Source of the DNA: Paracidovorax konjaci
GTDB lineage: Bacteria; Pseudomonadota; Gammaproteobacteria; Burkholderiales; Burkholderiaceae_C
DNA length: 64,000 nt
Direction: 5' to 3'
Assembly (NCBI RefSeq): GCF_900112675.1
Contig: NZ_FOMQ01000007.1
Coordinates: forward strand, 162,750 to 226,749
Shown here: positions 4,043 to 44,764 of the stretch, in pieces
Numbering within the stretch: position 1 is the stretch's first letter
How the letters are laid out: the number at the start of each line of letters is the position of its first letter
Notes under the pieces: model-generated
Database searches by the model: none
Told to the model about the DNA's origin: nothing
What the model saw: only the letters and a program-made list of their open reading frames with translations
Made by a program: the position numbers and the translations under genes

Positions 4043-4106
4043 GAAGCAAAAGGGGCCGTATGCCGGCGGATTCATTGAATACTTTGCTATTGATAACATA
4101 GCAAAG
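4043..4106 (-). repeat. 65-bp repeat element copy A (reverse orientation) in the hslV–hslU spacer
   Basis: The reverse complement reads TTTGCTATGTTATCAATAGCAAAGTATTCAATGAATCCGCCGGCATACGGCCCCTTTTTGCTTC, the same module order as copies at 8716, 13940, 34796 and 40632. Confidence 0.8.
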
Positions 4107-4127
4107 CACGGCAGGGGCGGACGGCGG

Positions 4128-4775: not shown

Positions 4776-6569
4776 TCAGTTCTTGCGCGGAACGATGCGC
4801 GCGTGCTCGTTGACGCCGATCACGTTGAAGAACACCGCCACCAGGCGCTGCACCTGCGTGAAATGCACCACGTTGCCCAGGGCCTGCTGCGCGGCAGCCC
4901 AGTTCAGCACCGAGCCGGCGGCCGCGAAATCGACGCGCGCCAGCCGGTCGCAGCCAATGGCGAAAGGCACGCCGCTGCGCAGGTGCGCCTCCAGGGGCTC
5001 CAGCATGGGCGTGGCGTCTCCCTCGATGTGCCCGGACAGCAGCGCGGCCGGCACGGCGGGCTCCAGGCCGCCCGACTGCGAGGCCGGATCGCCGAAGCCC
5101 GAGACGAAGGAATCGACCTCGAAGCCGGGCGCCGCGGCGGCGGCTTCGGGCACACCGCCCCCGTCATCCGAGTAGCTGCACCGCGGAGGCGCCCAGGACG
5201 GCGGCGACACCTCGTAGGTGACGCAGTAGTCCAGCGCGACCAGTTCGAATTCGTCGGGCTTGCCCATGAGCCGCAGCGCCGCCATGCGCAGGCGCCACCA
5301 TTCGGGCGAGATGTCCCGGTCGCCCGACGGGGTGCGCGCCTCCAGCAGGCTCACGAGCGCATCCACGCCCTTGAACACGATGGTGTCGGTGCGGTCCGCC
5401 CATTGGCCGAAAAGCTGCGCCAGGCCCGGCACGGCCGGCTCCTCGATGGTCATGAGGCGCGCCCAGGCGAAGGTCCAGGGCGGGGCGGAACGCGCGATGG
5501 CCGCCTGCAGCGCCGCCACCGACTGGGTGGCGAGCACGGACGGCGCGTTCCACAGGAATTCGCGCTGCGGTGCGGCCAGCGCGGCGGCGCTCGCTGCGGC
5601 CGGCACCTGCAGGCCGAGCAGTTCGGGCATGGAGAACCACAGTGGGGCCGAGCGGCCGAACCGCGCCGCGAAATCGATCGCGAGCGCGTCGAAGCGCTCG
5701 TGCTCCCCGATGGCGCGGTAGAGGTCGAACAGCGCCATCCAGAACTCGGCCTGGCGCTCCAGGTCGTCGCCCTCGTGCTGGGAGAGCACTTCGAGCAGGC
5801 CCGATTCAGCCCCGGCATAGTCGCCGTTCGCGAAGCGGATGGCGGCCTCTTCCAGGTCGGGCTCGTGGACGAAGGGCGGCGGCTCGGGTGCCACGAACAC
5901 GGGAGGGACCGGGTCGGCGCGCTCGGTGAGCATCGGCGGCACGAGCGGCCGGGCGCCCTCGGGCTGGCCGGCGCCGGGCAGCGGCAGGGGCACCGTGGCG
6001 GCCGCGAAGTCCGCGGCCGGCGGCAGGCTGTCGCCGGAGAAAAGGGGGTGGACGCCCGCGCCGGCCGCCAGCCCCGCCGGCAGGCTGGCCGGCGCGGTGG
6101 GGGCGAACGCGCGCGCATGCGCGTCGGTGGTGGAATCGGGGGCGCCGAGCGATGCCGGCTCGGTGGGCGCCAGCGCGCCGGGCGCCGTGGCGCCGGTGGC
6201 GGGCTGCTTGCTCTTCCACCACTGCTGGGACATCTGCGCCTCGATCTCGTCGATCTTCTTGAGCGTGACCGCCCGGTCGTCCGGGGAGGTCATGCTGGTA
6301 TGGAAGAACGAGGGGCGCGCGGTCTGGTCGTCCGAGCGCTGGCCGTGCAGCGCCTCGCGCTGGCGCAGCTTGCGCAACTGATCGAATTCGCGGCGCCGCA
6401 CGAAATCGTTGCGGCGCTTGCGCTCGATCATCTCCTTGAGCATCTGCTTGCTGTACTGGCTCTCGCGGTCCTCGTTGATCGAGTCGAGTTCGTTCCAGTT
6501 GACGGTGGGGTTGCGCACGAAGCGCACCACCTTGGACAGCAGGCCGCGGGAGGATTCTTCCTTGCTCAT
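4776..6569 (-). CDS. Hypothetical protein (597 aa) with a C-terminal STAS-like domain
   Basis: Long ORF with a charged N-terminus, a Pro/Ala-rich low-complexity linker, a helical-repeat-like middle, and a C-terminal segment (...PFAIGCDRLARVDFAAAGSVLNWAAAQQALGNVVHFTQVQRL...) that resembles STAS/anti-sigma-antagonist folds. No confident family assignment by eye. Confidence 0.55.
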   Translation of the reverse strand: MSKEESSRGLLSKVVRFVRNPTVNWNELDSINEDRESQYSKQMLKEMIERKRRNDFVRRREFDQLRKLRQREALHGQRSDDQTARPSFFHTSMTSPDDRAVTLKKIDEIEAQMSQQWWKSKQPATGATAPGALAPTEPASLGAPDSTTDAHARAFAPTAPASLPAGLAAGAGVHPLFSGDSLPPAADFAAATVPLPLPGAGQPEGARPLVPPMLTERADPVPPVFVAPEPPPFVHEPDLEEAAIRFANGDYAGAESGLLEVLSQHEGDDLERQAEFWMALFDLYRAIGEHERFDALAIDFAARFGRSAPLWFSMPELLGLQVPAAASAAALAAPQREFLWNAPSVLATQSVAALQAAIARSAPPWTFAWARLMTIEEPAVPGLAQLFGQWADRTDTIVFKGVDALVSLLEARTPSGDRDISPEWWRLRMAALRLMGKPDEFELVALDYCVTYEVSPPSWAPPRCSYSDDGGGVPEAAAAAPGFEVDSFVSGFGDPASQSGGLEPAVPAALLSGHIEGDATPMLEPLEAHLRSGVPFAIGCDRLARVDFAAAGSVLNWAAAQQALGNVVHFTQVQRLVAVFFNVIGVNEHARIVPRKN

Positions 6570-7477: not shown

Positions 7478-8572
7478 TCAGGCCAGGCACTGTTCCAGCC
7501 CCTGCTGGAAGATGTCCTGCGGCAGGTCGATGCCGATGAAGACCATCTTGCTCTGGCGGCGCTCGCCCTCGGCCCACTGCGGGCCCAGGTCGCTGCCCAT
7601 GAGCTGGTGCACGCCCTGGAAGATCACCTTGCGCTCGGTGCCCTGCATGTTCAGCACGCCCTTGTAGCGCAGCATGCGGGGGCCGTAGATGTTGACGATG
7701 GCGCCCAGGAAATCCTCCAGCTTGGCGGGATCGAACGGGCGGTCGGCGCGGTAGACGAAGCTCTTTACATCGTCGTCGTGGTGATGGTGGTGGCCGTGGC
7801 TGCCGTGCTGGTGCGAAGGATGGCTGCACTGCTCGCCGTGCGCATGGTCGTGGTCGTGGTCATGGCCGTGCGCATGGTCACCATGGTCATGGTCATGGTC
7901 ATGGTGGCCGCCCTCTTCCTTGAGGAAGTCGGGATCGATGTCGAGCTTGGCGTTCAGGTTGAAGCCCCGCAGGTCCAGCACCTCGGAGATCGGCACTTCG
8001 CCGAAGTGCACGGCCTTCATCGGCGCGCGCGGGTTCATGTGCTTGAGGCGGTGGATCAGCGCGTCGGTCTCCTGCGCGGTCACCAGGTCGGTCTTGGACA
8101 GGAAGATCTGGTCCGCGAAGCCCACCTGGCGGCGCGCTTCCTGGCGGTCGTTCAGCTGCTGCGCCGCGTGCTTGGCGTCCACGAGCGTGATGATGGAGTC
8201 GATGAGGTAGGTCTCGGCGATCTCCTCGTCCATGAAGAAGGTCTGCGCGACCGGGCCCGGATCGGCCAGGCCCGTGGTCTCGATGACGATGCGGTCGAAC
8301 TCCAGCAGGCCCTTGCGGCGCTTGGCGGCCAGCAGCTGCAGGGTCTCGCGCAGGTCTTCGCGGATGGTGCAGCAGATGCAGCCGTTGCTCATCTGGACGA
8401 TCTGCTCCTTGGAATCGGTCACCAGGATGTCGTTGTCGATATTCTCTTCGCCGAATTCGTTCTCGATGACGGCGATCTTCTGGCCGTGCGCCTCGGTGAG
8501 CACGCGCTTGAGCAGCGTGGTCTTGCCCGAGCCCAGGAAGCCCGTGAGGATGGTGGTGGGAATGAGGGACAT
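7478..8572 (-). CDS. COG0523-family metal-chaperone GTPase (CobW/YjiA/ZigA-like) with a His-rich insert
   Basis: Walker A GFLGSGKTT, the COG0523 signature GCICCT, and a His/Asp-rich stretch HHDHDHDHGDHAHGHDHDHDHAHGEQCSHPSHQHGSHGHHHHH. Confidence 0.85.
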   Translation of the reverse strand: MSLIPTTILTGFLGSGKTTLLKRVLTEAHGQKIAVIENEFGEENIDNDILVTDSKEQIVQMSNGCICCTIREDLRETLQLLAAKRRKGLLEFDRIVIETTGLADPGPVAQTFFMDEEIAETYLIDSIITLVDAKHAAQQLNDRQEARRQVGFADQIFLSKTDLVTAQETDALIHRLKHMNPRAPMKAVHFGEVPISEVLDLRGFNLNAKLDIDPDFLKEEGGHHDHDHDHGDHAHGHDHDHDHAHGEQCSHPSHQHGSHGHHHHHDDDVKSFVYRADRPFDPAKLEDFLGAIVNIYGPRMLRYKGVLNMQGTERKVIFQGVHQLMGSDLGPQWAEGERRQSKMVFIGIDLPQDIFQQGLEQCLA

Positions 8573-8715
8573 GGGGGTCTTTCAGGAAGGAAACATCGCC
8601 GCGGCGCGGGACCGGAGAGCGGCGCGGGCCGGGCTCCGGGGAGGTCTCTTCAAAGTTTAGCGATCGTGTCAAGCCCCGCGCCGGGTGCGGAATTCGGGCG
8701 CCCGGCGGGTTTTGG

Positions 8716-8780
8716 TTTGCTATTAAATATATAGCAAACTATTGAATGGATACGGCGGCATGGAGCATATTTCATGCAGC
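8716..8780 (+). repeat. 65-bp repeat element copy B (forward orientation) between rlmI and the COG0523 gene
   Basis: TTTGCTATTAAATATATAGCAAACTATTGAATGGATACGGCGGCATGGAGCATATTTCATGCAGC. The left module is a perfect 8-bp inverted repeat, TTTGCTAT-N7-ATAGCAAA. Confidence 0.8.
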
Positions 8781-8818
8781 ACATCACTTCCAGCCCCGGC
8801 GTGGCCCGCCGGGGCGCC

Positions 8819-10003
8819 TCACAGCTTGCGCATCACGGCCAGGCCCTTGAGGTACTCCCCTTCGGGGAATTCCAGCGTCATCGGGTGGTCGGGCGCGCCG
8901 CCCAGGCGTTCGAGGATGTAGCCGTCCACGTTCGCGTCCGCGCCGGCCGAGGCCACGATCTTGTGGAACAGGTCGGCACCGATGCCGCCCGAGCACGAGA
9001 AGGTGTAGAGCAGCCCGCCGGGCGCCAGCAGTTGCAGCCCCAGGCGGTTGATGTCCTTGTAGGCGCGTGCGGCGCGCTCGGCATGGGCGGCCGTGGGCGC
9101 GAACTTCGGCGGATCGAGCACGATGGCATCGAAGGTGCGGCCCTCCTGCAGGAAGCGCCGCAGGGAGGCGTTCACATCGGCGTCGAGGAATTCCGTGCGG
9201 CCGGCATCGAAGCCGTTGAGCGCCACATGGGAGCGGGCGCGCTCCAGCGCGGGGCCCGAGGAATCGATCGAGGTGACGTGCTCCGCCCCGCCCGCGAGCG
9301 CGGCCACGGTGAAGCCGCCCGTGTAGCAGTAGCAATTGAGCACGCGCTGCGCGCCCAGGCGGCGCACGGCCTCGGAGAAGCGGTGGCGGCTGTCGCGCTG
9401 GTCGAGGTAGAAGCCGGTCTTGTGGCCCTCCGCGATGCTGAGCGTCAGGCGCCAGCCGTGCTCGCGGATCGAGAGTTCCGTCGCGCCCTCGCCGCGCAGC
9501 CAGCCGGTGGCGGGCTCCAGGCCCTCCAGCTGGCGCACGTTGGCGTCGGAGCGCTCGTAGAGCTTGTCGAGGCCAGTGGACTGCAGCAGCGCATCGGCGA
9601 TGGCGGATTTCCAGCGCTCGGTGCCGGCGCTGGTGAACTGCGCCACCAGGGTGTCGCCGTAGCGGTCCACGATGAGGCCGGGCAGGCCGTCGGATTCGCC
9701 GTGCACGAGGCGCACGCCGTCGCTGTCGATGGCAAAGCGCTCCCGGGCGCGCAGGGCCCGGGCGACGGCGGCCGCGAAGAAGGCCGCGTCGATGCGCTGG
9801 GCCTCGTCGAAGCTCCAGGCGCGCGCGCGGATGCGCGAGGCCGGGCTGAACGCCGCCCAGGCGAGGAACCGTCCCTCGGCGGACTCCACGCGCACGGTCT
9901 CGCCGCTGTCGCCGCCGCCCTTGGCGATGGCCGATTCGAAGATCCAGGGGTGGCGGCGCAGGAGGGAGCGCTCCTTGCCGGGGCGCAGGCGGATGGTTTT
10001 CAT
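8819..10003 (-). CDS. rlmI: 23S rRNA (cytosine1962-C5)-methyltransferase RlmI (YccW family, class I SAM-dependent)
   Basis: 394 aa, MKTIRLRPGKERSLLRRHPWIFESAI... (PUA-like N-terminus) followed by a SAM-methyltransferase fold (VLNCYCYTGGFTVAAL...DPPKF). Confidence 0.85.
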   Translation of the reverse strand: MKTIRLRPGKERSLLRRHPWIFESAIAKGGGDSGETVRVESAEGRFLAWAAFSPASRIRARAWSFDEAQRIDAAFFAAAVARALRARERFAIDSDGVRLVHGESDGLPGLIVDRYGDTLVAQFTSAGTERWKSAIADALLQSTGLDKLYERSDANVRQLEGLEPATGWLRGEGATELSIREHGWRLTLSIAEGHKTGFYLDQRDSRHRFSEAVRRLGAQRVLNCYCYTGGFTVAALAGGAEHVTSIDSSGPALERARSHVALNGFDAGRTEFLDADVNASLRRFLQEGRTFDAIVLDPPKFAPTAAHAERAARAYKDINRLGLQLLAPGGLLYTFSCSGGIGADLFHKIVASAGADANVDGYILERLGGAPDHPMTLEFPEGEYLKGLAVMRKL

Positions 10004-10161: not shown

Positions 10162-11772
10162 ATGCATTACATCCATCGGCTCAAGGTGTCCACGCGGCTC
10201 GGCTGGCTCCTGGCGGCCCTGTGCCTGCTGGCGGCGGGCGTCGGCGGCGCGGGTCTGCTCGGCATGGGCAACTCGAACGCCGGCCTGGTCACCGTCTACC
10301 GCGACCGCGTCGTGCCGCTGCAACAGATCAAGGTGGTGGCCGATGCCTACGCGGTGAACGTCGTGGACACGGCGCACAAGGTGCGCGACGGCGCCATGAC
10401 GCCGCAGCAGGGCCTCGACTCGGTCGCCGCGGCGCGCAAGGACATCCGCACCCAGTGGGACGCCTACCTGGCGACCGACCTGCACGCCGAGGAGCACCGC
10501 CTGCTGGCGGAGTTCCGGCCGCTGCAGGCGCGCGCCGATGCCGCCGTCCAGACCCTCGAAGCGCTGCTGCGCGCCCAGGACATCCCCGGCCTCACCGCCT
10601 TCGCCGCGCGCGAGATGTACCCGGCGCTCGATCCGCTGCAGGCGGTGCTGGCCAGCCTCACGCAGGTGCAGCTCGACACGGCGCGCAGCACGTATGAAGC
10701 CGCCGAGGCGGATTACCACGCCACCCGCCAGGGCGTGATCGCCGCGGTGCTGGCCGGCATGCTGGCCGCCATCGGCTTCGGCGCGCTGGTGGTGCGCGGC
10801 ATCCTGCGCGAACTGGGCGCCGAGCCGTCCATGGCGGCGGCGGTGGCGCGCAGCGTGGCGCAGGGCGACCTGACCGTCGCCATTCCGACGCGCGACGGCG
10901 ACGCGGCCAGCCTGATGGCGCAGCTGCGGCGCATGCGCGACCAGCTCGCGGCGATGGTGGCGGCGATCCACGAGAGCGCCGAGAGCGTGTCTTCGGCGGC
11001 GCTGCAGATCGCGCAGGGCAACAGCGACCTGTCGGCCCGCACCGAGGGCCAGGCCGGCGCCCTGCAGCAGACGGCGGCCTCGATGGAGCAACTGAACGGC
11101 ACGGTGCGCCAGAACGCGGGCAACGCCCAGGAGGCCGACCGCGTGGCACAGGCCGCCTCGCGCGTGGCGGCCCAGGGCGGCGCGGCGGTGGCCGAGGTGG
11201 TGCGCACCATGCAGGACATCAACGACAGCAGCCGGCGCATCGCGGACATCACCGGCATCATCGACACCATCGCCTTCCAGACGAACATCCTGGCGCTGAA
11301 TGCCGCGGTCGAAGCGGCGCGCGCCGGCGAGCAGGGCCGCGGCTTCGCGGTGGTGGCGGGCGAGGTGCGGCAGCTCGCCCAGCGCGCGGGCCAGGCGGCC
11401 GGCGAGATCAAGGGCCTGGTCACCGCCAGCATGGAACGCGTGAACGCAGGCACCGACCAGGTCGCCCGCGCCGGCCAGACCATGGAGAGCGTGGTGCGCT
11501 CCATCCACGGCCTCTCGCAACTGGTGGAGCAGATCACGGCCGCCAGCCAGGAACAGAGCCAGGGCGTGGACCAGATCAACGACGCGGTGACCGACATGGA
11601 CCGCTCGACCCAGCACAACGCCGCGCTGGTGGAAGAGATGGCCGCCGCGGCCGCCGCCCTGAGCCAGCGCGCCCGGGAGCTGGTGGGTGCCGTATCGACC
11701 TTCCGGCTGCCCGGCGAGGCGCTGCTGGCCGCGCCGGCGGCGGGCCCGCTGCCGCGGCTGCGGCACGGCTGA
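10162..11772 (+). CDS. Methyl-accepting chemotaxis protein
   Basis: N-terminal TM segment, periplasmic four-helix-bundle-like sensor, second TM, HAMP domain, and the highly conserved signalling domain ...[34 protein letters not shown].... Confidence 0.9.
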
Positions 11773-12857: not shown

Positions 12858-13559
12858 TCAGCGCAGGCGCGAGAGGGCCGCGCTGGCCAGCTCGGACATG
12901 CGCACGAGGAAATCGGTGCCCATGGTCGCGTCGAAACGCTTTTCGTCGGGCGAGCCCAGTACCAGCAGTCCGAAGGCCGGCGCATCGCCGTCGAGCGCGC
13001 CTTCGCGCAGCGGCAGCAGTGCCACCGACTGCACCTGGCCGGCGTCCGGCAGCCAGCCCGCGGGCTCGAAGCCGAGGTTGGGGCCGCAGAACGGCTGGGT
13101 GAGCGACGTGGCGAAGGAGCGCGCATCGGCGCTCGCGCCCTGGGCGAACGGCGCCCCGGCGTACTGCGGCGACAGGTCCCAGAGGCGCAGCGCGGCCTGC
13201 GGCACGTCGAAGAGGCGGCGGATGCCCTGCTCCACGCGGTGGGGCAGCATGGCCGGATCGGTGGCCTGGGCGAGTTCGCGCGTCCAGTGGTGGATCTTCT
13301 GCGCGATGGCGGTGTTCTCGTGGCTGTGGCGCACCATTTCCATGATGCGCTGCTCCAGCCCCTTGATCTTCTCGCGCAGCATCTCGGCCTGGCGCTCCTG
13401 CAGGCTCACGGCGCGCTGGCCGTGCGGGCTGGTCAGGGTCACGCCGGTCAGCAGCTCGGCATGGCGCTCGAAGAAGCCCGGGGTGTTGGCGAGGAATTCG
13501 GCGATGTCGTCCTCGGTGATGGGCGGCACGGCGTGGGCGGGGGAATGCGGTGTGGTCAT
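12858..13559 (-). CDS. DUF484 family protein (YigA-like)
   Basis: 233 aa. Lies between dapF and xerC, as in the enterobacterial dapF–yigA–xerC arrangement. Confidence 0.75.
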
Positions 13560-14434
13560 GGTGCGTCGGGAATGTCGATCTGGCCTTCGAAGACGGTGGT
13601 GGCCGGCCCGGTCATGAAGACCGGATCGGCGGGGTCCCCGCTCCAGGCGATGGTGAGCAGGCCGCCGCGCGTCTGCACGTCCACGCGCGCATCGAGCAGC
13701 CCCAGGCGGATGCCGGCGGCCACGGCCGCGCAGGCGCCCGTGCCGCAGGCGAGCGTCTCGCCCGCGCCGCGCTCGTACACGCGCAGCCGCACGTGGCCGC
13801 GGTCCACGACCTGCAGGTAGCCGGCGTTCACGCGCTGCGGAAACCGCGGGTGGCCCTCGATGGCGGGGCCGGTGCGCGCGACGGGCGCGGTGTCCACGTC
13901 GTCCACGAGCTGCACGGCGTGCGGATTGCCCATGGAGACGATTGCTATGAATATAGGAGCAAACTCTTCAATGGAACCGGCGGCAAGCGGCCATTTTTGC
14001 CCTGAACCCTGGGCCACCGGCTCCAGGCCCGAGGCATCGAAGGGCAGGTCCTCGGGCGCGAAGCGCGGGCGCCCCATGTCCACGGTGACGCGGCCGTCCT
14101 CCGTGAGGCGGGGGGCGATCACGCCGGCCAGCGTCTGCACGCGGATGGTGTCCTTGGCGGTGAGGCCCTTGTCGCGCACGTAGCGCGCGAAGCACCGCGC
14201 GCCGTTGCCGCACTGCTCCACCTCGCCGCCGTCGGCGTTGTGGATCACGTATTCGAAATCGATGCCTTCGGTGGGCGATGGCCGCACGGTCAGGATCTGG
14301 TCGGCGCCGACGCCGAAGTGGCGGTCGGCCAGGAAGCGGTACTGCGCGGGCGTGAGGCCCAGGCGGTGCTGCGTTTCGTCGAGCACGACGAAATCGTTGC
14401 CCGCGCCCTGCATCTTGGTGAAGCGGATCTGCAT
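13556..14434 (-). CDS. dapF: Diaminopimelate epimerase DapF, carrying an in-frame repeat-element insertion
   Basis: [20 protein letters not shown]...CGNGARC...[10 protein letters not shown] includes both catalytic Cys motifs. Start trimmed to 14434. Its stop overlaps the DUF484 start (ATGA). Confidence 0.9.
13940..14003 (+). repeat. Repeat element copy C (diverged), lying inside the dapF reading frame
   Basis: GATTGCTATGAATATAGGAGCAAACTCTTCAATGGAACCGGCGGCAAGCGGCCATTTTTGCCC aligns along its whole length with copies B and D. On the minus strand it is translated as ...[20 protein letters not shown]... immediately before the conserved VSMGNPH motif. Confidence 0.75.
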
Positions 14435-14584
14435 CCGCGGGATTATCGTTGCGCCGGCCGGGGCATGGCCCCGCGCGGGCAAGGGCCGGGCCGCCGCGCG
14501 ATGATGGCGGCCCGCCCTCCGGCGCGCTCCGTCCCTGGAGCGCGACCAGGAGCCGCGCCCCGTTCCACGCTTTCAGGAGCCCCG

Positions 14585-16693: not shown

Positions 16694-16837
16694 GGAAACT
16701 CCGATGAGTCGCTCCAGCGCTTGGACGGGACACCGTCTACCCTCGCGGGACGGGAGGCTGTTTTCCCGGATAGGCGGATTCTAGTGCGCCCCGGCACGGC
16801 CTCACCAGCCCTCATCCCCCTTCCGGATGCCGCTGCC

Positions 16838-22438: not shown

Positions 22439-22572
22439 GCCGCGGTGCCGGCATTCGCTATCAAAACGATAGCTGCCTGCGCCCGCAGGATGGCGGCTGT
22501 GCGGCCGCGCAACGCCATCCTGCGCGGCCGTGCTGCGCTACACTGCCCGGCTCTTCGAGGGGGGTCAATTCC

Positions 22573-25127: not shown

Positions 25128-25474
25128 CCAAAGTGTGAAGCGCGCCGATAAGCCGGATTCTGTGCATGCGGTCGCCCGCATGTGACCGCCATTACTCTGG
25201 GCCGGGGGTCGCCCACCCGGCTCGATGCTACCTACCCGCCAGCTCCGCGGAACCACGTCAACGCTGGCCTACTTGGTATTGCTGCGCGTAGAGATTGCCC
25301 GTTTCACCCCGGCTGGTCTACCTTGCGGTACTCCCGCCGGACTCGTCTCTGTTGCTCTGATCCTCACCTCGCGGTGGACAGCCGTTAGCTGCTACGCCGT
25401 CCTGTGCAGTCCGGACGTTCCTCCAGTGCCTGGTTTCCCAGATCGCACCAGCGGCGGTCTGGCGCGCTTCACGG
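25128..25474 (-). ncRNA. rnpB: RNase P RNA (bacterial type A)
   Basis: Reverse complement contains GGAGGAACGTCCGGACTGCACAGG (P4 5' strand region, cf. GGAAAGTCCGGGCT), ...ACAGAATCCGGCTTATCGG... (P4 3' strand) and complementary P1 ends CGTGAAGCGCGCC / GGCGCGCTTCACA. Length is about 347 nt. Confidence 0.8.
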
Positions 25475-25954: not shown

Positions 25955-27736
25955 TCAGAAGGTTTCCCATTCGCCGTTGTCCTTGCTCGCCTGGCTGCTG
26001 GCCGCCGCCTTCGGTGCATTCGCAGAGGCGAGCGCGGGCCGCGGTGCTGCGGCAGGCCGCGGCAGCGGGGCCGGCGCGGGGCGCTTGCCCGCCTGCGCCG
26101 GGAGTGCCCGGGCCTGCGGCCGGGCAGCGCCGGGCACTGCCGCGGCAGGCGGCCGTGGCGCGGCGGGTGCCGCGTCGTCGATCTTGAACACGTCCACGGC
26201 CGCGACCAGTTGCTTGACCTGCAGGTTGAGGCTGTCGGCGGCGGCGGCAGACTCTTCCACCAGCGCGGCATTCTGCTGCGTGACCTGGTCGATCTGCATC
26301 ACCGCTTCATTGATCTGGCTGAGCCCGGAGGTCTGCTCCTGCGTGGCCGACGTGATCTCCTGGATCAGGTTGCTGACCCTGCGGACCTGCCCGACGATGT
26401 CTTCCATGGAAGTGCCCGCCGCATTCACGAGCTGGCCTCCGTTGGCCACCTTCTCCACGCTGTCGTGGATCAGCGTCTTGATTTCCTTGGCGGCTTCGGC
26501 GCTCTTCTGGGCCAGGCTGCGCACCTCGCTCGCCACCACCGCGAAGCCGCGGCCCTGCTCACCGGCGCGCGCGGCTTCGACCGCGGCGTTGAGCGCCAGG
26601 ATGTTGGTCTGGAACGCGATGCCATCGATCACGCCGATGATGTCGGCGATCTTCTGGGAGGATGTGTTGATCTCCCCCATCATCGACACGACCTGCCCGA
26701 CCACCTCGCCGCCCCTCTGGGCGGCCTGGCTCGCAGACTGGGCCAGCTCCGCCGCCTGCCTTGCCGTGTCGGCACTGCTCATCACCGTGCTGGTCAGCTC
26801 TTCCATCGATGCCGCGGTTTCCTCCAGGTTGCTGGCCTGCTCTTCGGTCCGCTGGGACAGGTCGGCATTGCCCGTGGCGATCTGGGTGGCGCCCACGGCG
26901 ATGTTGCCGCTGCTGCTGCGGACCGTCCCCACCACTTCGCGCAACGAGGCCTGCATCCTCTGCATCGCGGAAACCACGCTGCCGGGCTTCGCGCGCGACA
27001 CGTCGATCGGGTAGGTGAGGTCTCCGCGCGCGATGGCGCCGGCCACCAGCGCCACGTCCGCCGGCTCGCCGCCCAACTGGCCGGTGAGACCGCGCGTCAG
27101 CAGGGCCCCGATGGCCACGCCCAGGATCACGCCGCCGACCGTGAGGCTGATCAGGATCAGGCGCACCCGCTGGTAGATCACGCTCGTCTGGTCGTTCAGT
27201 TCCTTGGCGTTGAGCTTCTTGCGGTCGACCAATTGCCCCAGCAGCTCATCGGCCTTGTCCGCGATCTGCCGGACCTCGTTGATTTTCAGCATGGAAGCGC
27301 GCGTGTTCGACAGATCCTCGGTCTGCAGCAGCGCCAGGACCGACTGCAGGCCGGCGTCGTAGGCCTGCACGGCCTGCTGGGTCTCCAGGACGCGGGCCCT
27401 GCCTTCGTCGGTGACGAAGAAGTTCCCGGTCTTGGCCAACTCCTCGTGCATGGCCTTCAGGCGCATCTGCACCGAGGCGATGTGCGCGCGCCGCTCGTCC
27501 TGCGTGACGGCCAGCACCGCGCTGCGGATCGCCCGGCTGGCACCGATCAACTGGATGTTGGCCTCGGAGGCGTGCGACAGGCCCGCGATCTCGCGGTCAT
27601 ACATGAGGTCGGCAAGGTCGTTGATCTCGCTGGAACGCAGGATCCCGGCGGTTCCGATCAGGGCACCGATCGCCGCCACGGCCAGAAACCCGGCGATGAG
27701 CTTGGTGCCTACCTTCAGTCGTTTGAACCATTCCAT
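25955..27736 (-). CDS. Methyl-accepting chemotaxis protein
   Basis: [23 protein letters not shown]... (TM1), sensor domain, TM2, HAMP, conserved signalling domain [34 protein letters not shown], and a C-terminal Pro/Ala-rich tail. Confidence 0.88.
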
Positions 27737-31007: not shown

Positions 31008-31110
31008 GCTCCGGTTCGATTCCGGGAAGGCCACTTCTGTAGCTCAGAGGTAGAGCAGCCTTGTGTCCCAAGGCCTGGCGCAGGTTCGACTCCTGCCGGA
31101 AAAACCGACC
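31008..31110 (+). ncRNA. tRNA-like structured RNA in the rtc operon leader (Y-RNA/YrlA-like candidate); not a canonical tRNA
   Basis: D-arm-like TAGCTCAGAGGTAGAGC; anticodon-arm-like GCCTT-GTGTCCC-AAGGC; T-arm-like GCAGG-TTCGACT-CCTGC. A second T-arm-like hairpin TCCGG-TTCGATT-CCGGG lies just upstream. No pairing 7-bp acceptor stem could be found. Confidence 0.45.
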
Positions 31111-34774: not shown

Positions 34775-34795
34775 ACGGAACGCCTTCCCAGACGT

Positions 34796-34859
34796 TCGCT
34801 ACATATTTAATAGCAAACTATTGAATGAATCCGGCGGCATGAGGCCATTTTTATGCAAC
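34796..34859 (+). repeat. Repeat element copy D (forward, left arm partly missing) between rtcB and rtcA
   Basis: GCTACATATTTAATAGCAAACTATTGAATGAATCCGGCGGCATGAGGCCATTTTTATGCAAC. Its terminal ATGCAAC is the first ATG of the rtcA ORF called in the ORF track (34853). Confidence 0.75.
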
Positions 34860-34903
34860 AACAAGAAGAATTCCCGCGATCGGCGCATCCGATCGCCCCG
34901 GAC

Positions 34904-36046
34904 ATGCGCGTGGAATCTCCGCAAGGCGTTACCGTCCACCGCGGCGGACCGGGGGGTGCCGTGGCGCTTTCTCCGCAACCCCTGGTCCTCGACGGCTCGC
35001 ACGGCGAGGGCGGCGGGCAGATCCTGCGCACGGGCCTGGCGCTCTCGATGGTGACGGGGCGCCCGCTGCGGATCGACCGCATCCGCGCCGGGCGGCCCAA
35101 GCCCGGGCTCATGCGCCAACACCTCGCGTGCGTGCAGGCCGCCGCCGAGGTCTGCGGCGCGCAGGCCGAGGGCGCCGAGCCGGGATCGACCGCCCTGCAT
35201 TTCAGGCCCGGTGCCGTGCGCGCGGGCGACTACCGGTTCGCGATCTCGGGCGCCGGCAGTTGCCTGCTGGTGCTGCAGACCGTGCTGCCCGCGCTGCTGC
35301 TGGCGCAGGCGCCGAGCCGCGTGCAGCTCACGGGCGGCACGCACAACCCGATGGCGCCGCCGTTCGACTTCCTGGAGCTGGCCTTCGCGCCGCTGGTGCG
35401 GCGGCTGGGCGCGGGGCTGGACCTCACGCTGCGCCGCCGGGGTTTCTACCCCGCGGGCGGCGGCGAGGTGCAGGCCACCGTCACACCCGCCGCCACGGGG
35501 CTGGAGCCTTTCGACCTGCTCGATCGCGGCCCCTGCCGCGGTGCCTGGGCGCAGGCGGTGGCGCCGGGGCTGGCGCGCGGGATCGCGCGGCGCGAACTGG
35601 AAGCGCTGCGCCGCCACCTCGGCTGGCCGGGCGACCTGGCGGCCGGGCAACTGCGGGTGGCTCCCGCCCGGCAGAACGAAGGGCCCGGCAACGCGCTGCT
35701 CGCCGTGCTGGAGCACGGCGGGGTGACCGAGGTGTTCTGCGCGCTGGGCGAGCGCGGCGTCTCCGCCGAGGCCGTGGCGCACACGCTGGCCGCCGAGGTC
35801 ATCGGCTACCGGCAAGGCGGCGGCGCGGTGGGCCCGCACCTGGCCGACCAGTGGATGCTGCCGCTCGCGCTGGCCGTCTGGCGCAGCGGGCGCAGCGCCG
35901 CCTACACCGCCACGCAGGCCACCCTGCACACGCGCACGCATGCCGAACTGATTCCCCGGGGGCTGCCCGTGCGGATCACGCTGACGGAGCAGGCCGGGGG
36001 AACGCGCATCGACATCGCCCCGGCGGAGGGCCCGGCGCCGGCATAA
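34904..36046 (+). CDS. rtcA: RNA 3'-terminal phosphate cyclase RtcA
   Basis: ...[46 protein letters not shown]... matches the RtcA N-terminus. Start is uncertain: an in-frame ATG at 34853 lies inside the repeat element, and the ATG at 34904 is used here. Confidence 0.85.
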
Positions 36047-39593: not shown

Positions 39594-40676
39594 ATGTCCT
39601 CCGCCTCGCACGCCCCCGCCCTGCCCGACGAATCTGCCGGCCCGCAGGGCGACGGCACGCCCCCCAGCCGCTGGCAGCGGCTGCGCTCGCAGCGCTGGTG
39701 GCCCTGGGCCATGACGCTGGTCACCGGCGCCTTCGTGGTCTTCGTCGTCGGCCTGCTGGTGCGGCAGGCGCGCACCGTGGACTGGGGCGCCGTGTGGGAG
39801 GCCTTCCTCGCGCTGCCCCCGGCCACGCTGGCCGTGGGCGGTGCGCTGGCGCTCGCGAGCCACGGGCTCTACAGCACCTTCGACCTCTTCGGCCGGCATT
39901 TCACGCGGCACGGCCTGTCCGTGGGGCGCACGGTGGGCATCACGCTCATCGCCTATCCGTTCACGCTGAACCTCGGTTCGATCATCGGCGGAGTGAGCGT
40001 GCGCTACCGCCTCTATTCACGCCAGGGCGTGTCCGTCGGCGCGATCGGGCAGGTGATCGGGCAAAGCATCGTCACCAACTGGCTGGGCTACTTCGTGCTC
40101 GCGGGCGCGGTGTTCTGGGTCTGGTCGCCACGGCTGCCGGAGGGCTGGCACGTGGGCCCCGGCGAGCTGCGCTGGATCGGCACCGCGCTGGCGGCCATCA
40201 CGGTGGCGTACGTCGCCGCCTGCGCGGTCCGGCGCGGCAGGCCCCTGGCCTGGCGGGGGCACGACTTTCCGCTGCCGGGCTGGCGCGTGGCGCTGCTGCA
40301 GGTGGCCGTGTCGTCCGTGAACTGGATGGTGATGGGGGCTGCCGTGTGGGCCCTCACGGGCTACCAGCCGCCCTATGCCGCCGCGCTGGCCACCGTGCTG
40401 CTGGGCGCCGTGGCCGGGCTGATCTCCCGCATCCCGGCGGGCCTGGGCGTGCTGGAGGCCGTGGGCACCGCCGTGCTGTCGGCCTACATGCCCGCCTCCC
40501 AGGCGCTGGCGGCGGTGCTGGCCTACCGCGCCCTCTACTTCTTCGCGCCGCTGGTGCTGGCGGCGCTGGCCTTCGGCGCGGTCGAATGGGCCGGCCGCGG
40601 CGCGCCGGCCCCGGAAACGGACGCCCACAAGGAATCCGATGAAAATCAGCCCCATGCCGCCGGATCCATTCAATAG
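39594..40676 (+). CDS. YbhN-family membrane protein (lysylphosphatidylglycerol-synthase-like TM region, UPF0104)
   Basis: Polytopic membrane protein directly after clsB, as in the E. coli ybhP–clsB–ybhN operon. The last ~15 codons and the stop codon lie inside repeat copy E. Confidence 0.8.
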   Translation: MSSASHAPALPDESAGPQGDGTPPSRWQRLRSQRWWPWAMTLVTGAFVVFVVGLLVRQARTVDWGAVWEAFLALPPATLAVGGALALASHGLYSTFDLFGRHFTRHGLSVGRTVGITLIAYPFTLNLGSIIGGVSVRYRLYSRQGVSVGAIGQVIGQSIVTNWLGYFVLAGAVFWVWSPRLPEGWHVGPGELRWIGTALAAITVAYVAACAVRRGRPLAWRGHDFPLPGWRVALLQVAVSSVNWMVMGAAVWALTGYQPPYAAALATVLLGAVAGLISRIPAGLGVLEAVGTAVLSAYMPASQALAAVLAYRALYFFAPLVLAALAFGAVEWAGRGAPAPETDAHKESDENQPHAAGSIQ

Positions 40677-40697
40677 TTTGCTATAAATAATAGCAAA
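40632..40697 (-). repeat. Repeat element copy E (reverse orientation) overlapping the 3' end of the ybhN-like gene
   Basis: The reverse complement reads TTTGCTATTATTTATAGCAAACTATTGAATGGATCCGGCGGCATGGGGCTGATTTTCATCGGATTC. On the plus strand it encodes ...KESDENQPHAAGSIQ-stop. Confidence 0.8.
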
Positions 40698-40802
40698 CCG
40701 AGCCCTGCGGCCACCCGCATGCGCGGTGACAGCGCGGGGGGCTGCGGCGTATCATCGCGGCCGTTTTCCTGCACCGCCCGATCGACACGGGCCGCACACC
40801 CC

Positions 40803-43156: not shown

Positions 43157-44764
43157 TCAGCGCAGCCGCGCCACGCCCGGAGCGCCTGGCAGGGCGCCGC
43201 CGCCAGCGGCCCCTTCCGGCAGGCGGAAGGCCGCCACCAGGTCGGCCAGCTGCTGCGCCTGCATGCGCAAGCCCTGCGCCGCGGCGGACGACTCCTCCAC
43301 CAGCGCGGCATTCTGCTGCGTCATCTGGTCGAGCTGGCTCACCGCCTCGCCGACCTGGCCCAGCCCCGTGCTCTGCTCGCGCGCGGCGGTGCTGATCTCT
43401 CCGATGATGGTCGCCACCTGTTCCACCGACCCGACGATCTCGCCCATCGTGCCGCCGGCGGCATGCACCTGCTGCGTGCCTTCGTCCACCTTGCGCACGC
43501 TGTCGCCGATCAGCGCGCCGATTTCCTTGGCGGCCGTGGCCGAGCGCTGCGCGAGGCTGCGCACCTCGGCCGCCACCACCGCGAAGCCCCGGCCCTGCTC
43601 GCCCGCGCGCGCGGCCTCCACGGCGGCATTGAGCGCCAGGATGTTGGTCTGGAAGGCGATGCCGTCGATCACGCTCGTGATGTCGGCGATCCTGCGGGAC
43701 GATTGCGCGATGCCGTCCATCGTGCCCACCACCCGCTCCACCGCATCGCGGCCCCGGCGGGCCACGTCGCTCGCGGTGCCGGCCAGGCTGCTGGCCTGCT
43801 GCGCCGCATCGGCGCTGTGGCGCACGGTAGCGATCAGCTCCTCCATGCTGGCGGCGATCTCCTCCAGGTTGGAGGCCGTCTGCTCGGTGCGCGCCGAGAG
43901 GTCGGAATTGCCCGCGGCGATCTCGGCGCTGGCGCCCGCCACCGAGGCGCTGGCCTGGCGCATGCCCACCACGAGGCTTGCGAGCCGATGCTGCATTCCG
44001 CCCAGGCGCGCCAGCAGCGCGCTCACCTCGTCGCGGTTGCCCTCGCTCGCCGGGGGAACCACGGAGGTGAGGTCGCCCTCGGCGATGCGGTCCGACACGG
44101 ACGAGGCACCGGACAGCGGCTTCAGGATGGAGCGCGAGAGCAGCAGCGCACAGCCCAGGCTGAGCAGCAGCCCCAGCAGGGAGCCCCCCACGAGCAGCGC
44201 GATGCCCTGGCGCTCGCTGGCCTCGGCCTCCGCGCGCGCCTGGATGACGCGCTTGCGCTGGTACTCCGCCAGCTCGTCCACCGCGGCGGCGTAGCGGTCG
44301 GCCGCGGGCCGCAGCAGCTTGCCCACGGCTTCGGGCGGAAGCACCTCACCGGCCTTGCGGCGCTTGACCAGGTCGTCGCGCGCCGCACGGAAGGCATTGC
44401 CCGTGGTGTCGATGGTCTCGAAGATGCGCTTCGATTCGGCGTCCTCGGCCAGGGCTTCGAGCCGCTTGCGCACCTCGGAGGAGCGCGCCGAGGTGAGCTT
44501 GCGGTCGGCCTCGATGCGCGCCGCGTAGGCGGGGTTGTCGATTTCCAGCAGCGTCTCGGCGCGCACGGAGCTGAGCACCACGATGGAATGCAGCTCGCGC
44601 GCGAGCAGCGCACGCTCGGACGACGCGCCGCCCAGGTCATCGGTGATGTCCTGCAGTTCCGAGAGCCGCCAGACCCCCACGGCCGCGGACAGGGACATCA
44701 CGACACAGATCGCGCCGAAGGCGATCGCGAGGCGGAAGGACAGGCGGGCGTTGTGCAGTTTCAT
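43157..44764 (-). CDS. Methyl-accepting chemotaxis protein
   Basis: [23 protein letters not shown]... (TM1), helical sensor, TM2, HAMP, and the conserved signalling domain [34 protein letters not shown]. Start trimmed to 44764. Confidence 0.88.

Follow-up and report, generated by a model that had tools for sequence, protein, structure and literature searches.

How does a repeat of about 60 nucleotides come to be read as protein inside a housekeeping gene? This question is raised by dapF, the diaminopimelate epimerase gene of Paracidovorax konjaci, which lies in the 64,000-nt stretch of DNA analysed here (the window, whose DapF is 100% identical to the P. konjaci DapF at NCBI) and which contains copy C of a dispersed repeat. 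The original prediction, made from the letters of the window, regarded copy C as a MITE, a transposable element of the miniature inverted-repeat kind, that had added about 20 residues to the enzyme. According to our analysis, copy C is not a net insertion and sits on 20 codons of a β-hairpin that is found in every DapF. In the explanation which we favour, with moderate confidence, it is an old translated member of a ~60-nt repeat of the Comamonadaceae, the middle of which was overwritten by non-reciprocal templated copying and filtered by protein selection. The features of the gene are as follows.

13556-14437, minus strand: dapF (diaminopimelate epimerase), an intact open reading frame (ORF) of 292 aa.
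13940-14003, minus strand (sense with dapF): copy C, encoding DapF residues 146-165, as placed by profile matches, translation and secondary structure.
13958-13983, minus strand: middle module of copy C, putatively overwritten, sense strand CCGCCGGTTCCATTGAAGAGTTTGCT, encoding the loop AGSIEEFA.
13964-13966, minus strand: codon GAG (Glu157), the counterpart of an in-frame TAG in copies B, D and E and of TAC in copy A.

The DapF of the window matches DapF structures of the PDB at E~1e-90, its catalytic residues Cys75 and Cys230 both fall in nearly invariant alignment columns, and its AlphaFold model has a mean pLDDT (predicted local distance difference test) of 95.7. Bases 13940-14003 have 50% G+C, against ~72-78% in the surrounding dapF, and their translation on the coding strand gives 20 residues without a stop and then VSMGNPH, in agreement with the description of copy C as lying wholly inside the gene and in frame. 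Its membership of the repeat was also confirmed, since an nhmmer profile to which no dapF sequence contributed (its sources being copies A, B, D and E plus two copies from relatives) matched it in the 64-kb window at E=5.4e-10. With this profile copy C scored 35 bits, compared with 58-67 bits for the other copies, and is indeed the most diverged of the five. A family profile of 68 positions, likewise built only from non-dapF copies, matched it at E=1.2e-5 (nhmmer). An A+T-rich patch of dapF that merely resembles the repeat by chance or composition might be expected to be this diverged and to have the degraded terminal hairpin seen in copy C. However, neither the E-value obtained free of dapF nor the shuffling control, in which the exact 63-mer (with at most three mismatches) was matched 0 times in 100 shuffles, agrees with such a resemblance, the same outcome was reached in 31 independent loci, and the dapF peptide mirrors the in-register translation AAGSIQ*FAI of other copies. 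Chance can, in practice, be dismissed.

The window holds five copies of the repeat, A-E, plus a sixth of an older type. The copies outside dapF are listed below, where L numbers denote loci of related genomes.

4045-4109, plus strand: copy A, in the hslV-hslU spacer, with copies in the same spacer of L084, L001, L006, L007, L008 and L014.
8714-8779, minus strand: copy B, between an rlmI-like gene (8819-10003) and a cobW-like gene (7478-8572), with orthologous copies in L084 and L081.
34793-34857, minus strand: copy D, upstream of rtcA, found in L087 but not at the corresponding spot in Acidovorax sp. NCPPB 2350 (L086).
40640-40700, plus strand: copy E, in the spacer between two plus-strand genes, the orthologous copy of NCPPB 2350 having a different middle module.
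22453-22498, minus strand: the sixth copy, of the older 'GCAGCTAT' type, with an orthologous copy at L084:1928.

The hslV-hslU spacer carries a copy in at least seven genomes, copy A included. The rtcA ORF upstream of which copy D lies (34853-36046 as listed, 397 aa) is spanned by its homologues over only ~87-89%, and its true start is probably ~40 codons downstream, so that copy D would stand ~100 nt upstream of the gene rather than abut its start codon.

In the orientation sense to dapF, the unit consists of AAATYGGCC-TC, a middle module of ~22-27 nt, and AG-(C/T)AGCTAY-N7-RTAGC, and two hairpins are found in the intergenic copies. No feature of these copies is better conserved than the terminal hairpin, GCTAY-N7-RTAGC, in which 83% of cells are paired and GCTAT:ATAGC and GCTAC:GTAGC take turns. 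The hairpin of the module is paired in 63% and shows compensatory changes, e.g., GCGCTT/AAGCGC versus GTGCTT/AAGCAC. Covariation was 0.241 versus 0.192 after shuffling, a value that 1/500 shuffles reached. DNA fold z-scores reached -4 to -5 in strongly folding copies (copy B of the window, L004) and were near zero in others, such as copy D and L060.

A mobile MITE that inserted in frame into dapF in the konjaci lineage, adding ~20 residues to a surface loop, would account for a real repeat copy in frame, for the lower confidence of the middle residues in the protein model, and for the shorter E. coli DapF in this region. The lengths of related enzymes argue otherwise. Among the 120 closest DapF proteins (Paracidovorax, Acidovorax, Diaphorobacter, Simplicispira, Giesbergeria and Verminephrobacter), a segment of equal length, typically QKWPLALDGQAQAATVLIAVV-SMGNPH, is present in all, and the distance from MGxP to MGNPH is 48 aa in every Comamonadaceae DapF examined, whether or not the DNA is repeat-like, including those of repeat-free members such as L083, Variovorax, Hydrogenophaga and others. 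The DapF of L083, which is 89% identical to that of the window, has the equal-length segment QTWPLELGAGQDRETVQVAVV, while no repeat match of at least 30 nt was found in its 21 kb of syntenic DNA even at E<=10; what the original prediction had named as its refutation, the segment in a close orthologue lacking copies of the repeat elsewhere, was thus observed in this locus as regards position and length. In the nearest non-Comamonadaceae representatives (66% and 61% identity), the distance is 44-45 aa, and these outgroups already carry the WPLAL...VAVV β-hairpin, reading ...LWPLALPGGAGVEVAVVSMGNPH and, in the example at 66% identity, ...ELWPLALPGGAGVEVAVVSMGNPH, with 3-4 residues fewer than the Comamonadaceae. 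Judged from these alignments, konjaci DapF would differ from the nearest outgroups by a net of about three loop residues, not twenty. The E. coli type has a distance of 37 aa, 11 below the Comamonadaceae, of which by eye only ~3-4 fall within the hairpin; PDB alignments place the segment of copy C opposite the E. coli hairpin YIMRAAEQTILCGVV, which is the counterpart that the E. coli enzyme had been thought to lack.

The AlphaFold model gives a strand at residues 145-150, a loop at 151-160 (pLDDT ~71) and a strand at 161-167 that runs into SMGNPH. The two strands are encoded by the repeat's conserved ends (QKWPL and IFIAIV), the loop by its variable middle. Because the 20 codons correspond to strand-loop-strand in the model, removal of the 60 nt would be predicted to delete two core β-strands of DapF. 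The idea of a surface loop thus holds for the middle residues, which form a low-confidence surface loop, but not for the 20 codons as a whole. As for the MITE itself, inspection of the aligned copies showed neither terminal inverted repeats nor target duplications; the left AAATYGGCC and the right RTAGC are not inverted copies of each other, and the palindromes are internal only (the repeat search of the window, with a minimum length of 25, is unsuited to short terminal repeats). No clean empty site or target-site duplication could be aligned for copies A or D, as the hslV-hslU spacer and the region upstream of rtcA are too diverged. An assignment to the MITEs is not established, and with the same dapF position being repeat-like in ~30 genomes of several genera, we consider a konjaci-specific insertion all but excluded.

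Two other observations concern the length and frame of this hairpin. In the dapF of L056 and L060, three extra codons (…APVWVAPVSMGNPH) stand between the repeat and SMGNPH, the sole length variation seen beside the repeat. In L066, a metagenome-assembled genome of Rhodoferax, the dapF hairpin (~433-500 in the locus) has an in-frame TAA in the loop (…WPLVLDPP*QNTTVLVAVVS), explicable by a sequencing error, by the gene being a pseudogene or by recent disruption of the same cassette.

How widely the dapF segment resembles the repeat was examined by extracting the same 60-72 nt from 85 related loci. The contig scan for orthologues supplied, among the matches listed, loci at <=85% identity, and close relatives were added through exact-protein matches. 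The segment is A+T-rich in many genera and resembles repeats elsewhere in the same locus; the family profile matches it in 31 loci, the position and the sense orientation being identical in every one. Loci with a matching segment mostly have 2-4 further copies within ±10 kb, whereas those with a G+C-rich segment have none, with four exceptions. On the DapF tree, the positive lineages, including the Acidovorax/Simplicispira/Giesbergeria, Rhodoferax, Polaromonas and Curvibacter groups, are scattered among negatives such as Variovorax and Hydrogenophaga, which points to the repeat-like dapF segment being an old feature with several losses. It is not special to the konjaci lineage but occurs family-wide and is ancient. 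The density of the repeat is 0.06-0.25 copies per kb, and the number of copies per genome is suggested to be large because the assembly of a close relative, the 5.7-kb short-read contig L087, broke at the repeat, as is typical of high-copy repeats: its two ends (1-45 and 5696-5720) lie inside the orthologues of copies D and E.

In addition to dapF, copies were found inside other genes, bringing the total to at least five protein-coding genes: dapF, rlmI, a metallo-β-lactamase (MBL)-fold hydrolase gene, lpxK and the gene of an FAD-dependent protein. Genic status was claimed only for copies backed by protein homology. ORF length was rejected as a criterion, being unreliable in G+C-rich DNA, where the copy in the hslV-hslU spacer falls in a spurious ORF of 1731 codons. 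The second coding site is represented in the window by its repeat-free form.

9722-9793, minus strand: rlmI site, repeat-free and G+C-rich in the window, encoding IDAAFFAAAVARALRARERFAIDS, with the repeat at this site in ~20 other genomes.

The rlmI gene of the window was identified by Pfam and by E. coli RlmI (3c0k). In ~20 loci its orthologue carries the element antisense to the gene, encoding IDAPFFIAACARAIRARARFDI and making use of the rare codons AGA, AGG and ATA. The site was found in 41 loci; its segment is equally long in all of them, and it aligns to E. coli RlmI without insertion, the E. coli protein being two residues longer. In ~16 loci the element lies in the MBL-fold hydrolase gene, with a segment length equal to that of the repeat-free L083. 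The lpxK copy (L030:3268) lies in a gene that matches Pfam LpxK at 8e-99 in a single stretch covering profile positions 1-327 of 328, which indirectly supports length neutrality there as well. The copy at L056:3721 is inside the FAD-dependent protein gene (Pfam FAD-depend_C, 9e-72), and another, at L077:1677, lies in an ORF identified by eye only as an aldehyde oxidase/cytochrome c fusion.

The evidence for copying between these sites comes from comparing the parts of the repeat. For its ends, identity is 0.74-0.75 between orthologous sites in different genomes versus 0.47-0.52 between different sites in the same genome. For the middle module, the corresponding values are 0.57 and 0.62, with 0.47 for unrelated pairs. 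At the three validated coding sites (dapF, rlmI and MBL), on which alone the p-values rest, the modules of dapF and rlmI are more similar in same-genome than in different-genome pairs (0.664 versus 0.574, p=2e-4), and a same-genome excess is also found for dapF-MBL (p=1.6e-3) and rlmI-MBL (p=9e-3). Both ends of the repeat at these sites are without such an excess, which argues against a composition artefact. The signal is strong in the window, L084, L063, L060, L024, L004, L016 and L051. In L060, dapF and rlmI share GGCCTCTAGCCCTCACRGAAYGTGCGCAAGCAGCTA almost exactly, and the MBL copy has the flanking parts GGCCTCTAGCCCTC and GCGCAAGCAGCT in common with them while its centre differs. In L063, an otherwise unique module, GGTCCTTGTCGSACGGTCA, is common to dapF and rlmI, and the RlmI peptide is altered to IDATFIIANIDRATRTRARFDI along with it. 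The dapF module of the window has an identity of 0.81 to the best copy of its own genome versus a mean of 0.32 to foreign copies, only 1/67 of which, from the close relative L084, equals the own-genome match. As a side observation, a repeat subfamily of the form 'CATGYCGSC…TTTGCTAT' is found both in L063 and in the konjaci clade, unrelated lineages with DapF proteins ~70% identical, which could be due to horizontal spread of the variant or to an old polymorphism.

In konjaci itself, the dapF copy is a mosaic. In its outer parts, CAAAAATGGCCGCTTGC and CCTATATTCATAGCAATC, it is similar to the general dapF type found in Simplicispira, whereas the central 26 nt (13958-13983) match the local consensus CCGCCGGATCCATTCAATAGTTTGCT at ~22-23/26 positions by eye and show little match to the Simplicispira type. 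Read in the register of dapF, copy B gives ...AAVSIQ*FAI, copy D ...AAGFIQ*FAI and copy E ...AAGSIQ*FAI, and their TAG stop is GAG in dapF, consistent with the earlier proposal that copy C was shaped to keep the frame open. The same patch occurs in a decaying form, ...VADSIEESAP..., in the dapF of P. anthurii and NCPPB 2350; being common to all three, the overwrite would be older than the split of P. anthurii and NCPPB 2350 from konjaci. Copy E has positional orthologues in konjaci and NCPPB 2350, with the konjaci consensus module only in konjaci and a different module but the same terminal hairpin in NCPPB 2350. The latter has no copy upstream of rtcA and has one between rtcB and RlaP instead; its copies, at 6036-6098 and 12578-12635 of L086, are at positions that differ from those of konjaci.

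Membership of the family, length neutrality, distribution across the family, genome-specific sharing of the middle module and removal of the stop are all observed, and from them we infer how the copying took place and in which direction. The ends of the repeat would be held in place by the protein, as they encode the two strands, so that site-specific ends stay put. The middle ~26 nt would act as a cassette that, from time to time, is copied non-reciprocally among the copies of a genome, in a manner like gene conversion or by template switch. The cassette of dapF may have been overwritten with the lineage's own variant before P. konjaci and P. anthurii diverged from their ancestor, turning a loop ...LDGQAQAAT... 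into that of konjaci, and only the version with the in-frame TAG changed to GAG could have persisted, while frame-breaking variants would have been removed by selection. Candidate mechanisms include template switching at the hairpins, short single-strand annealing and an element-specific enzyme.

Instead of being copied, the cassettes might have converged. The copies could be sites for one trans-acting factor of drifting specificity (e.g., a protein that binds DNA or RNA, a guide RNA or a bias akin to an uptake signal), each site tracking the factor by its own substitutions, as in the uptake signal sequence (USS) and DNA uptake sequence (DUS) systems. Such a constraint would explain why coding-region copies occur in either orientation, without length change, at conserved orthologous positions and in lineage 'dialects', why rare codons (AGA, AGG, ATA, CAA and AAA) are used in G+C-rich genomes, and why stems are kept while loops vary in some lineages (L004, L007). 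However, the near-identity over ~26 arbitrary bases among the konjaci copies, together with the wholesale differences between lineages, is too much for independent point substitutions; the density is ~0.1-0.2 per kb compared with ~1 per kb for USS/DUS; and the 60-nt unit far exceeds known protein recognition sites. Neither a promoter- or terminator-like consensus at copies A-C nor an Rfam family match was found, and we rate a common external constraint as quite unlikely.

Another alternative reverses the direction: a long-lived coding copy, in dapF or rlmI, would be the master that repeatedly gives rise to short-lived intergenic copies, and these would resemble the gene as its recent progeny. 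In L034 (Polaromonas glacialis), positions 8779-8863 are an 85-nt copy of the genome's own dapF segment (10430-10514), SMGNP codons included, at 79% identity (E=4e-17) and 1.2 kb upstream of dapF. Since this copy has dapF-specific flanks, it hints that copying can also run outward from the gene. The conserved left end of the element, GGCCTCTAGCGCTT, reads WPLAL in the dapF frame, a motif already present in outgroup DapF, the core of the general type corresponds in antisense to the conserved RlmI peptide AACARAIRARARFD, and loci with a decayed dapF segment mostly lack repeats. Against a coding master, at least three validated coding sites share the genome-specific module, of which only one could be the master, the four intergenic copies of the window agree with one another against dapF at several positions, including TAG versus the GAG of dapF, and in L063 it is the RlmI peptide itself that changed to fit the module. 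We rate a reversed direction as decidedly improbable.

A third alternative shares the replacement of the cassette with the explanation we favour and ascribes it to an element-specific enzyme, for instance a REP-associated tyrosine transposase (RAYT; REP, repetitive extragenic palindrome), an IS200-like single-strand transposase or a recombinase acting at the GCTAT-N7-ATAGC hairpin, which would excise the old module and paste the active variant into the same scaffold without general recombination. It would fit the strong conservation and pairing of the terminal hairpin, the exchange of the module while non-homologous ends stay, the similar 'TTTGCTAT' subfamilies in the konjaci clade and L063, as if a variant travelled with its cognate factor, and the gain or loss of copies between close relatives (D absent and the rtcB-RlaP copy present in NCPPB 2350). 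On the other hand, the genes called in loci L081-L087 include no such gene and no member of the Y1_Tnp family (RAYT, Y1 HUH transposase), nothing recognisable as a cleavage motif, a GTAG tag or inverted REP pairs was found, and dapF would be non-functional in the intermediate that excision produces. An excising enzyme is unlikely.

Several points also weigh against templated overwriting as we propose it. The flanking ends of different sites are only ~45-60% identical, which is too little for ordinary RecA-dependent gene conversion, so that an unusual mechanism must be assumed, and the limited DNA sampled, which per genome was ±10 kb around dapF, plus one locus of 15 kb and another of 5.7 kb, yielded no gene of a nuclease, transposase or template. 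On average, the same-genome excess is modest (0.05-0.09); only some genomes show it strongly, and others, such as L049, L061 and L043, show none. The dapF module of P. anthurii is closer to the konjaci consensus than to the copies near it in its own genome, and homogenisation is therefore not continuous. In addition, the first event that made the dapF hairpin repeat-like may have been either a replacement or the birth of the family from the gene.

A more far-reaching version of templated overwriting is a tentative possibility, namely an undescribed sequence-rewriting drive in the Comamonadaceae, in which a dedicated system repeatedly overwrites a ~25-nt cassette at hundreds of fixed scaffolds, some of them in essential genes (dapF, lpxK and rlmI). 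Such a system might rely on a nuclease by which repair from ectopic copies is stimulated, or on single-stranded DNA or RNA present in abundance as a template. If true, a selfish repeat would edit protein loops in place, with gene length never changed.

Other identities for the repeat were considered and rejected. A structured RNA or riboswitch found no support, as no Rfam family matched and the single-strand fold of the konjaci dapF copy (z -0.7) was no better than those of shuffles; across the whole window, no Rfam match at gathering score fell on the repeat, with chance-level ones only at copy D (E 0.65 and 4.1). A promoter antisense to dapF, TTGCTA-17 nt-TATTGA, was discarded after a consensus scan of copies A-C gave no promoter- or terminator-like site. 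A phage or mobile origin of the konjaci variant was set aside with no exact match in viral contigs, and mutagenic homing as in diversity-generating retroelements was set aside because the differences between copies are not, by inspection, confined to adenines. A dif-like site tied to the neighbouring xerC was considered as well, and the hairpin arms seem unlike the dif sequence. Elsewhere in the window, Rfam matches at gathering score comprise a chrB-b RNA (16714-16769, minus strand) upstream of a chromate transporter gene, an RNase P class A RNA (25133-25470, minus strand) and a tRNA (31033-31104, plus strand). The window also contains stretches of ~130-300 nt at 71-79% identity between 26203-26886 and 43243-43926, at a constant spacing of 17040, plus an inverted one at 11232-11485, which are probably paralogous genes unrelated to the repeat.

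Dispersed bacterial repeats are usually viewed as extragenic, or as insertions when they are genic. Here, members of one repeat family occupy fixed positions in the conserved coding sequence of several housekeeping genes, with no change in length, across a bacterial family. A non-coding repeat can apparently rewrite protein loops, the DapF loop of konjaci being the translation of the repeat minus its stop, and concerted evolution may act on dispersed 60-nt units without flanking homology, which calls for a mechanism not yet described. Translated copies could serve as natural, datable markers for the rate and direction of overwriting, and repeat-masking such genes or annotating them as carrying insertions would mislead.

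Among known systems, the closest in appearance are the Rickettsia palindromic elements (RPEs), which Ogata and co-workers are said to have described in 2000 as in-frame translated repeats in housekeeping genes, reportedly true insertions of 30-50 residues absent from orthologues. Like them, the Comamonadaceae repeat is a short, palindrome-containing dispersed repeat that is in frame and translated, leaves the host gene intact, lies at a surface feature, where it is tolerated, and occurs at orthologous positions in relatives. Unlike them, it adds no length in dapF, rlmI or the MBL hydrolase gene, its ends encode pre-existing core strands, its middle changes with the other copies of the genome, and it has no sequence relationship to RPEs and a different host family.

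With REPs and the bacterial interspersed mosaic elements (BIMEs), and with the REP doublets forming hairpins (REPINs) and their RAYTs, it has in common short hairpin-forming repeats in high copy number, with long vertical persistence and species-specific variants, and an imperfect palindrome, short and kept from copy to copy. Concerted evolution is a topic of the older literature on palindromic units. REPs are extragenic by definition, whereas this repeat lies in at least five protein-coding genes and, unlike REP/REPIN-RAYT systems, was found without a GTAG/CGTC tag, without inverted REP pairs and, as far as the genes called in L081-L087 go, without a RAYT gene. The surveys of Di Nocera and Nunvar make no mention of Comamonadaceae genera.

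The USS of Pasteurellaceae and the DUS of Neisseriaceae are similar in being DNA-level signals laid over coding sequence, in either orientation, length-neutral, in places that the protein tolerates, at orthologous sites and in 'dialects'. They consist, however, of 9-12-nt cores at ~1 per kb that spread by point mutation and uptake bias, whereas the Comamonadaceae unit is ~60 nt with hairpins, at about 0.15 per kb, and the ~26 arbitrary bases common to its copies would require templated copying. Small non-autonomous repeats of the enterobacterial repetitive intergenic consensus/repeat unit (ERIC/RU) and Correia MITE types occasionally lie in ORFs and give rise to peptide segments (Delihas 2007, PMC2759123). 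Terminal inverted repeats, target duplications and lengthening or fusion of ORFs belong to those MITEs, and none of these was found for the Comamonadaceae repeat. In the literature searched, neither this element nor intragenic concerted evolution of such repeats in Comamonadaceae is described. The repeat fails at least one defining feature of each of RPE, REP/REPIN and USS/DUS, and there is a real chance that the mechanism underlying it is new.

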